Part shown: piece by piece, positions 55,220-58,094 of the stretch
Layout: each line of letters begins with the position of its first letter
How positions within the stretch are numbered: the first letter of the stretch is position 1
Source: an uncultured Verrucomicrobiae bacterium
GTDB taxonomy: Bacteria; Verrucomicrobiota; Verrucomicrobiia; Chthoniobacterales; UBA10450
Assembly (NCBI GenBank): GCA_963815455.1
Contig: CAWFGO010000001.1
Coordinates: forward strand, 1,376,001 to 1,440,000
Direction: 5' to 3'
DNA length: 64,000 nucleotides
Translations under genes and position numbers: made by a program
Notes under the pieces: model-generated
Database searches by the model: none
Told to the model about the DNA's origin: nothing
The model's input: the letters and a program-made list of their open reading frames with translations, nothing else

Positions 55220-55462
55220 CTACCAGAGGCGCTTTTTCGCGAATGCGTGGCCTGACCCAGATTTGAGATAACGCTCAAAGGCTTCTGCCTTAGCTTGGTC
55301 GGCGAACGCAATATATGTCGTCAGTTTCCAAGGCCTGAACTTTGAAGAGTGGAAGGATTTTCCCGCGTTGTGCTCTCGGAGCCGTTTTTTGAGATCAGTG
55401 GTCATTCCCACATAACGTTCGCCTTCCTTAATGAGACTCTCAATTAGGTAAACGTAATACAT
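55220..55462 (-). CDS. Stand-alone GIY-YIG nuclease family protein, 80 aa
   Basis: YVYLIES...YVGMTTDLKKRLREHNAG...RPW...AEAFERYLKSGSG; SD GAAGGAGGG. Confidence 0.93.
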   Translation of the reverse strand: MYYVYLIESLIKEGERYVGMTTDLKKRLREHNAGKSFHSSKFRPWKLTTYIAFADQAKAEAFERYLKSGSGHAFAKKRLW

Positions 55463-55539
55463 CGTAGTCCCTCCTTCGCTGAAGCTTCGGAGGGTAATAA
55501 TATACTTGACCGACCGCTTCATTGGCATATTCTGCTCGC

Positions 55540-56534
55540 ATGAACGCACCCGAAACTTTGCTCGAAGCAGTCTCGTATTTCAGCAATCCAGAGAACGCTT
55601 TCCAGTTCTTTGTCGGCATTCGCTGGCCGCGTGGAGTGCGTTGTCCGCGCTGCGGTTCTGATAAGGTGACGTTCCTCGCAAACGCGAAGGTGTGGAAATG
55701 CAAAACTCCGCACCCAAAGCAAAAGTTTTCGGCAAAGGTCGGAACGATCTTTGAAGATTCGCCGATTGGCCTGGAGAAATGGCTTCCCGCAATGTGGCTC
55801 GCCGCTAACTGCAAGAACGGAATCAGTTCTTACGAGTTGCACCGCGCGATTGGCGTAACGCAAAAGACCGCTTGGTTCATGTTGCAGCGGATTCGGCTGG
55901 CAATGCAGGACGACTCTATCGAGAAAATGAAAGGCCGTGTTGAAGCCGATGAAACTTTCATCGGCGGACTGGCTCGGAACATTCACAAGAATAAGCGCAA
56001 AGTTCGTGGAACAGGTGGAATCGGTAAGGAACTGCCGTGATTGGACTCTTGGAACGCAATTCGCCGAATCAATCCTCTCGGGCGTTCGTTGCAAGGTTAT
56101 TGAGAACGTGCGCCGTCATCATGTCGATTCGCTGAGGTGCGCGAGAATGTCGAAAAGGGGACGGATAGTTTTCACGGATGCTCTGGATTCCTACAACCAG
56201 CTTTCGGGTGAATACGTCCACAACGTAATCAATCACGCTGAGTGCTATGCCAAAGGACACGTCCACACTAACGGGCTTGAAAACTTTTGGTCGCTCCTGA
56301 AACGCGCGCTGAAAGGAACCTATGTAAACGTTGAGCCTTTTCATTTGTTCGGGTATCTCGATGAACAAGCGTTTCGGTTTAACGAGCGCAAAGACGACGA
56401 CCAAGGGCGATTTGTTAAGGCGCTCGGCGGCGTTGTGTGGAAAAACTTTGAAATATGCCAAGCTCATCGCGGCAGAGGGTGGTGATGGCATTCAATTTCC
56501 GAGACGTGGCAAACGGCATAGCAGCATTTCATGA
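55540..56534 (+). CDS. IS1595-family (ISXO2-like) DDE transposase, frameshifted
   Basis: RWPRGVRCPRCGS zinc ribbon, GTIFEDS, GISSYELHR.IGVTQKTAWFM, VEADETFIGG, FTDA, HTNGLENFWSLLKR, YLDEQAFRFN over several frames. Confidence 0.93.
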
Positions 56535-56639
56535 TCTATGCGCAGCGCGACTAGCAATGATAACTCCGATAAAGATGCCGAAAAACAATCCGACCGCGCC
56601 GAAGACAGCGCAAAGAAAACGACTAGCGGCCGAAGTAAT

Positions 56640-57446
56640 ATGAGCGGCTTCATATCGTTTCTGTTCAGCGCGATCGTGTTCGTCATTACATTTGGGTTCG
56701 TTCTCGGATACATGTTCAAAGGTACTTACCAAGGTTACGTCGCTAGCATGTACTGGGGATTCGCAGCATATGTCGCCGCTGGCGTCGCTATCTTTTCGGG
56801 GTTTCATTATTTCGTCCTTGCGCCGTCCAAGGCAAATACGCCGCGATTGTCCTTCTCCGTTGCACAGGAACTTGCGATTACGAGTCAAAAATATGACAGT
56901 CCATCGTTCTGGTTTGGATTCGAGAACGGAACCCAAATGTATTTGTCGCCTGTTAGTGATGTCATGTACGTCCGATTGACTAACGGACTGGAATCTAAGC
57001 CACTTCTCATTGATTCCTATTTCCTTGAGGTTCGCGTTTCTGGCAAGCCGTGGAAGTACGCTACCCGTTTTCGGCAGCGCGATATTGAGCGAGGGAAAAT
57101 ATTCTCGACTTTTCTTCAAAACGGTCCCGCTAACTCTGTGGAAGTGACGGAAACGGTTCCACAATTCGAGCAAGTTATTAGAGAGAAAAACATTGGGGCT
57201 GGCGAAACTGTCAGAGGATTGATTTTTGTCGAACGCCCAGCGGGTTACGACGCCCACCCCGACGCCCGCCAGTGGCGACTTACGATTCGGGACGTGAATG
57301 GCGCAGAGGGGAATGCAGTAATAACACGATCTACTATGCCGCGCGGGGACGACTCTATTACTGAGCTTTATTTCAAGCCTGGCAAACGAACCGATATTAC
57401 TGGAATGACCTTCATTCTTTACAGCAAAACAGGTCGTTATCGTTAG
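56640..57446 (+). CDS. IS passenger: hypothetical protein with two N-terminal TM helices and a soluble domain (alternative start 56538)
   Basis: Two hydrophobic segments then ~200-aa beta-rich-looking domain; visibly more AT-rich than flanks. Confidence 0.8.
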   Translation: MSGFISFLFSAIVFVITFGFVLGYMFKGTYQGYVASMYWGFAAYVAAGVAIFSGFHYFVLAPSKANTPRLSFSVAQELAITSQKYDSPSFWFGFENGTQMYLSPVSDVMYVRLTNGLESKPLLIDSYFLEVRVSGKPWKYATRFRQRDIERGKIFSTFLQNGPANSVEVTETVPQFEQVIREKNIGAGETVRGLIFVERPAGYDAHPDARQWRLTIRDVNGAEGNAVITRSTMPRGDDSITELYFKPGKRTDITGMTFILYSKTGRYR

Positions 57447-57470
57447 AGACGAACCGCATAAACAAGTGAC

Positions 57471-57641
57471 ATGAAGAACACTGAAACACGCGAGGAAACG
57501 CTTGCGCGATTGGCTGAGGATTCCAGCGAAGGAAAGACATCGGCCAAACGATTCGAGGCCCTGGTTAGGCGGGTAGCGAAAACGCCAACGCCAGCAGTAA
57601 GAGCCAAGGAATCGGACACATCGGAAGCAGCGAGCGAATAG
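57471..57641 (+). CDS. IS passenger: small 56-aa ORF
   Basis: Manual translation MKNTETREETLARLAEDSSEGKTSAKRFEALVRRVAKTPTPAVRAKESDTSEAASE*. Confidence 0.55.
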   Translation: MKNTETREETLARLAEDSSEGKTSAKRFEALVRRVAKTPTPAVRAKESDTSEAASE

Positions 57642-57817
57642 ACCTTTCGCCCTGTCACGGCGGCAGCGGCACAATAGGCCAACCGCACGGTCGGTCAAGT
57701 ATATTATTACCCTTCGGAGGGCGTCCTGCTTCCCGCAATCGTGCATCGCTTTCCTGCCGAGCGCACTGTGGTTCGAAGCCGGCGCCAGTTCTGCGAAGCG
57801 CGTAGCGCGAAGCAGGA

Positions 57818-57904
57818 CGGAAGGGGTGGGATTCGAACCCACGGTGGGTTACCCCACGCTCGATTTCGAGTCGAGTGCCTTAAACCGGACTCAGCCACCC
57901 TTCC
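57818..57904 (-). tRNA. tRNA-Ser(CGA), CCA not encoded
   Basis: GGAAGGG acceptor, CTCGA-CTCGAAA-TCGAG anticodon arm, long variable arm GTGGGGTAACCCAC, GGTTCGAATCC. Confidence 0.97.
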
Positions 57905-58094
57905 AAATTTGGCAAAGAAGAAAGCGCCCAACGATCCGAGCCGGACGGGCGGTTAACGTCCAACATCCAAGGCCCAATGCAAACGCCATTTGCCCATGCG
58001 ACGGCAGGATGCTCATCCGTTTCATCCGCGTAATCCGCGGTCTGCCTGAGCCCCAAAAAATGTTACAATTTTTGTCTTGCCGCGTTTGCCCTTT

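Follow-up and report, generated by a model that had tools for sequence, protein, structure and literature searches.

The closest published counterpart of the locus described here is the Ssn/NTS system, in which the small GIY-YIG nuclease SsnA is associated with NTS/SRM hairpin repeats. Ssn proteins cut single-stranded DNA (ssDNA), but not double-stranded DNA, beside the hairpin repeats associated with them, and RNA is not bound; SsnA acts on a single strand, a few bases away from the hairpin, and leaves RNA untouched (PMC11893778). An IS200/REP-like mobile origin was raised by the authors of that work (Chenal et al. 2025, PMC11893778; CDD cd10448). We analysed a window of 64,000 nucleotides of an uncultured Verrucomicrobiae bacterium (assembly GCA_963815455.1, contig CAWFGO010000001.1, positions 1,376,001 to 1,440,000), in which a gene for an 80-residue GIY-YIG nuclease lies behind a tRNA-Ser(CGA) gene and a leader made of hairpins. 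This cassette is real, widespread and sharply defined, and is a variant of the small GIY-YIG-plus-hairpin systems whose new trait is the targeting of tRNA ends and of the dinucleotide CA. It is probably a selfish DNA element of minimal size (about 0.4 kb) lodged at the 3' end of tRNA-Ser, and its nuclease is predicted to nick the element's own hairpin in ssDNA, after which the element would be joined behind a host CA. Its left junction is fixed and its distribution patchy; copies without the gene occur, the hairpins covary and lie on opposite strands, and the SLX1-like active site is intact.

The cassette of the window is interrupted by an insertion sequence (IS). When the IS and one copy of its target-site duplication are removed, 128 nt separate the discriminator base of tRNA-Ser(CGA) from the ATG of the nuclease gene at 55462 (125 nt when counted from the end called by ARAGORN), in agreement with a preliminary description of this DNA, made from the letters alone, that had placed the gene about 130 nt behind the tRNA on the same strand. 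The 14/15-bp inverted repeat overlapping the tRNA 3' end and the two oppositely oriented hairpins, the second holding the Shine-Dalgarno sequence, are likewise present as described there (Table 1). The tRNA gene stops at its discriminator G without an encoded CCA, which is absent in several relatives too, and the first leader base directly follows the discriminator. The ARAGORN span (57815-57905) is longer than the Rfam span (57818-57904) because three leader bases are taken as CCA. The outermost pair of the upstream hairpin, H1, involves the last base of tRNA-Ser. Between H1 and the downstream hairpin, H2, lies a half copy that can pair perfectly with the 5' arm of H1 to form a helix, P1; its 5' arm overlaps the tRNA end as well as the H1 5' arm, and P1 and H1 are mutually exclusive. 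H2 buries the GGAGG ribosome-binding site, which stands 7 nt ahead of the ATG and is predicted to be paired in RNA. Directly past the stop codon lies a decayed second copy of H1, which could be aligned with that hairpin in four close homologues (p 0.0005-0.007 against shuffles) and with the window's own H1 (p 0.012).

The association with tRNA genes recurs among homologous loci. A scan with one genome per species yielded 124 relatives, of which the best 80 loci were kept; related loci are counted separately and are not independent of each other. A same-strand tRNA or transfer-messenger RNA (tmRNA) gene ends at most 400 nt upstream in 57 of the 80 loci, and in 54 of the 72 with at least 450 nt of upstream DNA. 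These RNA genes represent 18 anticodons plus tmRNA, and the cassette is always downstream on the same strand. By record title, the loci come from Verrucomicrobiota, Pseudomonadota, Nitrospirota, Acidobacteriota and other phyla; the closest homologues (78-84% identical) are mostly from Verrucomicrobiota and mostly at non-tRNA sites. Among 52 scored tRNA junctions, 50 consist of CCA followed without any spacer by 3 or 6 nt (two subtypes) and TNCGC, while the two exceptions are tRNA genes that lack CCA. When metagenomes were scanned with 24 nt of the central leader, at least 122 stretches were returned, 115 of them distinct. Among the matches listed, 89 of 93 parsable junctions follow CA (44/45 at tRNAs called by ARAGORN and 45/48 elsewhere), several of the sites without an ARAGORN call are visibly missed tRNA ends, and the nuclease gene stands behind the leader in 64 of the 102 stretches with enough DNA. 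Three different CA positions are used within a single host stretch of about 120 bp (L001, L002, L257; matched by eye). Because of the tRNA cases and these three positions, the CA is host-coded. The common target feature is a junction after CA, not tRNA-Ser and not strictly a tRNA; the predicted target is most often the CCA at the end of a tRNA gene or of tmRNA. At one recurring non-tRNA site (L003, L006, L029; in metagenomes e.g. L211, L238, L256) the junction falls at an apparent start codon, where the element abuts the ATG of a divergently oriented gene (by eye).

A protein tree of 106 rows and 80 columns (7 of 113 sequences with open frames below 70 aa were dropped) requires no fewer than 25 switches of tRNA label and 12 of phylum, as counted on the labels observed. 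Tree rows L118 and L136, and an IS flank (L325), come from unpublished genomes (G003, G008, G015). Near-identical nuclease and leader sequences are found under the titles Verrucomicrobia and Aliarcobacter (L064/L065), reflecting either recent transfer or a binning error.

The leader consists of three fixed parts, H1, P1 and H2. The GNA/GNA internal loop of H1 is on the strand opposite the transcript, and H2 has the same motif on the coding strand. Across 82 leaders (80 loci plus L112 and the copy of the window as rebuilt), the arrangement stem-GNA-GC-loop-GC-GNA-stem was present on the coding strand in 72 and on the other strand in 67, as compared to 1 and 2 of 295 control segments. Both hairpins occur in 61 leaders, and in all 61 the opposite-strand hairpin is the upstream one. 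The CTTCGC-N-GCTTCG motif of the preliminary description holds as a pair of hairpins; as a bare hexamer-pair pattern it was rejected as a repeat family, since in five genomes it was not clearly more frequent than its reversed control. In an alignment of 28 leaders, 8 of 18 pairs change on both sides, including 5 of the 7 pairs of the H1 outer stem, and 95.6% of cells are paired compared to 34-47% in slid controls; two of five alignment measures did not exceed shuffles. This is the covariation that the first description had proposed to look for. Full or one-mismatch pairing of P1 is retained in 50 of 61 leaders, with at least 6 fully complementary variants, and its last two bases track those of the host: TG where the host ends in CA, and CG in the window, where tRNA-Ser also ends in CG. 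L005 is an uncompensated exception to this matching. Mismatches on the GNA strand are G.T rather than A.C at 30:1 in H1 and 6:1 in H2, a sequence pattern that favours a putative folding of each hairpin on its GNA strand.

The 3' ends of tRNA genes are hotspots for integration in general, and the units might be seen as leftovers of integrative elements or of a terminator-like repeat at such hotspots, with the nuclease as a passenger. In L036 and L038, 21-22 nt from the end of the tRNA recur behind the gene, consistent with this explanation. It is nonetheless largely refuted and hardly credible given that the ~0.4-kb unit contains no integrase or transposase, that the spacer is zero at 50 of 52 junctions, that a conserved, covarying three-part leader is tied to one nuclease group, and that no T-run follows either hairpin in the leaders printed. 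A tRNA-end duplication of the attL/attR type is rare: a flank repeat ending at the junction was found in 4 of 61 loci and in 1 of 36 among the metagenome matches listed.

Sites free of the cassette were found as well. Loci were returned for 29 of 40 relatives searched at tRNA-Ser(CGA); 27 of them contain this tRNA gene, which in 15 cases neighbours the same ribonucleotide reductase. The nuclease gene (tblastn) and the leader (by eye) are absent from all 27; three of these loci are from the unpublished genomes G003, G008 and G015, without which the count is 0/24. The empty tRNA-Ser sites foreseen earlier thus exist. In the same-genus genome G001 the order reductase-tRNA-tricorn protease is kept without a cassette, and homology resumes about 60 nt past the nuclease stop, which brackets the right boundary. 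Among tRNA-Tyr loci of the genus to which the Bradyrhizobium genome G041 belongs (best 30 of 56 matches), 5 had leader and gene, 16 the leader only and 9 neither; two subfamilies are represented at the five filled loci, with 57-59% and 69-74% identity to the query. At L018, L021, L035 and L060 the stop codon is followed by bases that match the end of a leader without a gene from another subfamily, which points to overwriting of older copies by newer ones. Duplications of the flank that stop exactly at the junction measure 119, 57, 22 and 21 bp (L002, L007, L036, L038), while a further 'significant' one, in L062, is a GC-rich false positive. Target-site duplication was rejected as a general rule and is a minority event only. 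No second close copy of the nuclease gene was found in the genome that holds the window, where the other matches to the leader model are weak single hairpins; a hit at E<=0.001 was obtained in 10 of 40 relatives. A high-copy REP family in this genome was discarded on account of the low copy number.

These sites bear on the possibility that the nuclease serves its host. It would be co-transcribed with the tRNA, the leader acting as an RNA switch in which P1 hides the CCA and H2 the ribosome-binding site, and tRNA 3' processing or stress would turn on a small repair, RNA-cutting or defence nuclease. The cassette is indeed always downstream of, and on the same strand as, the tRNA; in the minimum free energy fold of the RNA the cloverleaf and P1 persist, as does H2, in which GGAGG is entirely paired; tandem G.A pairs are stable in RNA as well; and purifying selection is strong and copy number low. 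We nevertheless consider this explanation unlikely, in view of the 18-19 tRNAs and many non-tRNA sites occupied, the absence of the cassette from tRNA-Ser(CGA) of the 27 relatives, the leaders from other subfamilies that stand behind the same tRNA without a gene, the 7 of 113 gene copies with an open frame below 70 aa (some possibly start-codon offsets) and the GNA loops of H1 on the non-transcribed strand. The first description had also considered that the leader might be a conserved non-coding RNA. Its conservation is borne out; searching Rfam 15 over the window region and 16 intact loci gave no leader family, with only tRNA and tmRNA reaching the gathering score. As the GNA loops and G.T pairs of H1 lie opposite the transcript, the evidence leans towards a role at the DNA level. 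The same description had envisaged a tRNA-targeting selfish unit: the tRNA link, the covarying leader, the empty sites and the gene-less copies agree with it, while exclusivity for tRNA-Ser, or for tRNAs at all, does not hold. The opposite outcome, with homologues lacking tRNA adjacency and vertical synteny throughout the relatives, was not what we found.

The 80-residue protein is a single GIY-YIG domain (PF01541, E 9e-16, 58 bits, cut-off 22.6) with the core Tyr, Tyr, Arg, His and Glu and the fold of the superfamily; most homologues are 78-90 aa long. In 74 homologues, Y17, R27 and E63 are invariant (74/74), Y5 is present in 70 and H31 in 72. The median ratio of nonsynonymous to synonymous substitutions is 0.10, 0.05 and 0.07 in three clades at a synonymous divergence of about 1, and the catalytic residues are under purifying selection as judged from the aligned sequences. 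An AlphaFold model (pLDDT 94) has HIGLE, UPF0213 BH0048 and Slx1 as its best solved folds (1zg2 matched in sequence with E 6e-6; 7wme, 6sei and 7cq3 in fold with TM 0.73-0.75 over the query), and in this model the protein has an SLX1-like fold with an intact predicted active site. The nuclease profile matches 3,961 clusters (50% identity) at E<=1e-10 among 1.84 billion.

An enzyme of this kind could also act in restriction of ssDNA, as Ssn nucleases do: it would cut incoming or exposed ssDNA bearing the hairpin and so guard tRNA ends or modulate gene transfer, with the cassette being spread only by host recombination or another enzyme. Such a role would be in line with the reported reduction by SsnA of the integration of NTS-bearing DNA in Neisseria (PMC11893778), with the lack of any evident strand-joining catalytic feature in an 80-aa GIY-YIG protein, and with long residence at one site. 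As it leaves unexplained both the base-exact CA junction at many unrelated sites and the P1 arm that tracks the last two bases of the host, we regard this explanation as quite improbable.

Under the selfish-element reading, we infer the following route. ssDNA would be provided by the lagging strand, a transcription bubble or incoming DNA, in which the coding strand would form H2 and its complement, opposite the tRNA, H1. Binding of the nuclease to the GNA/GNA-bulged hairpin, comparable to that of SsnA to NTS, would be followed by a cut at the foot of H1. The freed end (TG; CG in the window) could then pair with the CA of a new target, exposed in a tRNA gene beside the folded acceptor stem, and host recombination and repair would fix this end, giving the base-exact left junction. 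The right end would be resolved loosely by microhomology at the stop codon or shortly past it, overwriting older residents or occasionally duplicating the flank. Transcription would be driven by the tRNA promoter, with H2 hiding the ribosome-binding site and damping translation. Priming by the mature tRNA is less likely because CCA-less tRNA genes retain CCA-less junctions (the window, L005, L194, L289). A more tentative extension, possible but short of probable, is that these cassettes form a new class comprising the smallest autonomous mobile elements: an 80-residue SLX1-like nuclease and a two-strand hairpin leader that would retarget any tRNA or tmRNA 3' end by a two-base match, without transposase, integrase or reverse transcriptase, with subfamilies overwriting each other and sister clades using other motifs and targets.

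Several points weigh against a selfish element. Cutting and movement are predictions, as is every step of the route above. The nuclease had no match in phage (50,697) or plasmid (72,556) records; no vehicle was thus found, and phage or plasmid carriage was set aside for those collections. The metagenome query includes the TG arm, which skews its matches towards CA junctions, and the protein tree has only 80 columns and leaves half of its inner branches without support. As to the hairpins, a single position in related sequences accounts for 27 of the 30 G.T pairs of H1, and the folding energies of the leader are about equal for both strands, whether RNA or DNA. Flank duplications are significant in 5 of 61 loci (4 at the junction) and in 2 of 59 controls, and number 2 of 36 (1 of 36 ending at the junction) among the metagenome matches listed; a second H1 after the gene is a minority feature as well (5/61). 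This genome of 3.6 Mb contains one full leader, 6 perfect GNA hairpins and 14 model hits at E<=0.1. Lastly, the Bradyrhizobium tRNA-Tyr and Nitrospira tRNA-Ala copies combine a synonymous divergence of about 1 with strong purifying selection, which fits long vertical residence and host benefit equally well.

The IS that splits the window cassette is an unrelated intruder of the IS1595 family. Its terminal inverted repeats begin GGTAATAATATACTTGACCGACCG, and it is flanked by an exact duplication of 8 nt (CTTCGGAG; 55485-55492 and 57712-57719), the sole exact length among the 4-11 nt tested. The transposase was assigned by Pfam and NCBIfam, and the zinc ribbon, the ISXO2-like DDE domain, the terminal inverted repeats and the 8-bp duplication are those of IS1595. 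The frameshift that splits the transposase may be an assembly error. The 302-aa passenger open reading frame (ORF) had no match above cut-off in Pfam or NCBIfam. The IS landed inside H2, where its terminal bases happen to restore the hairpin beside the nuclease gene, contributing its last two bases; the gene therefore retains H2 and is severed from the tRNA and from H1, and the window copy is probably no longer mobile as a unit. The terminal repeat of this IS occurs in 24 of 150 family genomes. Inspection by eye of 20 printed insertion flanks revealed no full leader, and a role of the IS as a component of the system or as a hairpin-targeting partner was hence rejected; one flank (L336) resembles the target duplication of the window.

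Table 1. Features of the split cassette and of the inserted IS (positions refer to the window)
Feature	Position	Strand	Basis or remark
tRNA-Ser(CGA), host gene/target	57818..57904	-	Rfam RF00005 56 bits; ARAGORN; cassette-free in 27 relatives' loci
Helix P1, 5' arm	57805..57819	-	inverted repeat search; predicted folds
Hairpin H1, stem-GAA-GC-loop-GC-GAA-stem	57788..57818	+ (opposite tRNA transcript)	sequence; motif on this strand in 67/82 leaders
Helix P1, 3' arm	57722..57736	-	adjoins H2, zero spacer
H2 stump on tRNA side	57712..57721	-	includes the target duplication copy at 57712-57719
IS1595-family insertion sequence, unrelated intruder	55493..57711 (2,219 bp)	+	domains, terminal repeats, duplication
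IS passenger ORF, 56 aa	57471-57641	+	
IS passenger ORF, 302 aa	56538-57446	+	hydrophobic N-terminal segments
Frameshifted IS transposase	55540-56040 / 55937-56485	+	Pfam, NCBIfam
Hairpin H2, CCCTCC-GAA-GC-TTCA-GC-GAA-GGAGGG	55469..55494	- (coding strand)	motif on this strand in 72/82 leaders; covariation; contains second duplication copy (55485-55492)
Stand-alone GIY-YIG nuclease gene, 80 aa, intact	55220..55462	-	Y5, Y17, R27, H31, E63; PF01541
Decayed second H1 copy, directly past stop codon	55181..55211	-	local alignment

Other small GIY-YIG genes and repeats were noticed as well. A second gene, 48% identical, lies behind tmRNA with a related but rearranged leader (G000 C5:75580-75945, L140), and leaders of this type also follow tRNA-Gly, -Met and -Ala in relatives (L113, L115, L116, L118-L120, L137-L139). 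Another clade is found about 25-30 nt behind tRNA-Pro or tRNA-Asn without a hairpin leader (G000 C3:553334, C3:491245 on the minus strand, L128, L133, L135); the 3' half of the tRNA is often repeated after the gene, sometimes in tandem, and the copy at C3:491245 has an internal stop. Small GIY-YIG genes apparently inside integron-integrase-like genes were seen by eye in L125-L127, L129 and L131, some with a short hairpin bounded by ACGT; L129 seems to split the region around what we take to be the catalytic His/Tyr motifs of the integrase. A GIY-YIG-like ORF, below the tblastn threshold and seen by eye, apparently begins directly after tRNA-Met (G000 C1:174046 onward). A different repeat of about 100 nt, resembling a degenerate tRNA copy and ending in a duplicated tRNA 3' end, follows tRNA-Ala and tRNA-Ser genes (G000 C1:411976, C3:564177, C5:219725, L095, L105), and tandem repeats of the tRNA 3' half follow tRNA-Val at C3:462731.

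No description of GIY-YIG cassettes at tRNA ends was found in a literature search that covered subscription journals sparsely. If the selfish-element reading is true, it would provide one explanation for thousands of 'hypothetical GIY-YIG' genes (3,961 clusters by profile match, counted irrespective of a leader) and for hairpins after tRNA genes; a very small selfish element would insert without transposase or integrase, and the candidate sequence-specific ssDNA nucleases would gain a second group that recognizes another motif. It would also open the mobility proposed for the Ssn nucleases to direct testing, as the position of the cut is here predicted to the base by the junction. A practical effect is that the leaders distort the calling of tRNA 3' ends and start codons.

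When the cassette is set beside known systems, tRNA-targeting integrative elements likewise settle at tRNA 3' ends, and free-standing GIY-YIG homing endonucleases, such as SegB, likewise have a nuclease gene as selfish driver; the cassette differs in that it has neither an integrase nor a DNA-binding extension, shows no general att duplication and had no match in the phage or plasmid collections. Homing endonucleases and Penelope elements had been named at the outset as settings in which GIY-YIG domains serve; among tested enzymes, the Ssn nucleases and, by fold, SLX1 are closer. The nucleases SLX1, HIGLE and UPF0213, which cut branched DNA, are the best sequence and fold matches of the 80-aa protein. 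Identity to these is about 28%, and the cassette differs by its lack of extra domains and its link to a hairpin in cis and a tRNA end instead of a place among core repair genes.

With the REP/REPIN (BIME)-RAYT systems (PMC6006769, PMC3733652), the cassette shares an inverted doublet of bulged hairpins, one enzyme gene accompanied by gene-less copies, and a proposed action on ssDNA; the doublet has the same order in 61/61 leaders, and the gene-less copies are the 16 leader-only sites among the best 30 of 56 tRNA-Tyr loci. In contrast to the RAYT enzyme (TnpA-REP), the nuclease is of the GIY-YIG and not the HUH-Tyr type, copies number a handful instead of hundreds, and these are anchored at tRNA ends. 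A GTAG, GTGG or CGTC guide at the hairpin foot was found in 1-2 of 61 leaders per test, and the window's GTAG/CGTC tags, which are not conserved, were dismissed as REP-type guides. The likeness to RAYT/REP proposed initially thus survives as an analogy, without an HUH enzyme, conserved tags or a high copy number.

For the Ssn system, the terms 'tRNA' and 'tmRNA' do not occur in the main text of PMC11893778. Within 300 nt of the 80 loci, and around the window gene, the published SRM pattern was not found (0/80; 20 hits elsewhere in the genome), which is a weak control because it also missed the GTCATC-type repeats of Ssn-like paralogues. These paralogues, Ssn-like on our reading, are GIY-YIG genes of about 100 aa with GTCATC-type hairpin repeats on both sides, which occupy the same site in three genomes (G000 C3:443690, L130, L136) and form a separate long branch in the tree. 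As a proxy for a comparison with SsnA/cd10448, the nuclease is 32% identical to the genome's own Ssn-like paralogue (E 4e-4). Ssn and the present cassette share a small single-domain GIY-YIG protein (<150 aa) tied to its own oriented imperfect hairpin, a wide range of phyla and the spacing of the catalytic Tyr/Tyr/Glu (Y6/Y17/E64 in SsnA, Y5/Y17/E63 here). They differ in protein length (94 aa in SsnA, 80 aa here) and in the hairpins, with Ssn repeats on both sides of the gene and a GNA/GNA-bulged doublet upstream of it here, and the present cassette is further set apart by its low copy number and its fixed junction at a tRNA CCA or a CA.

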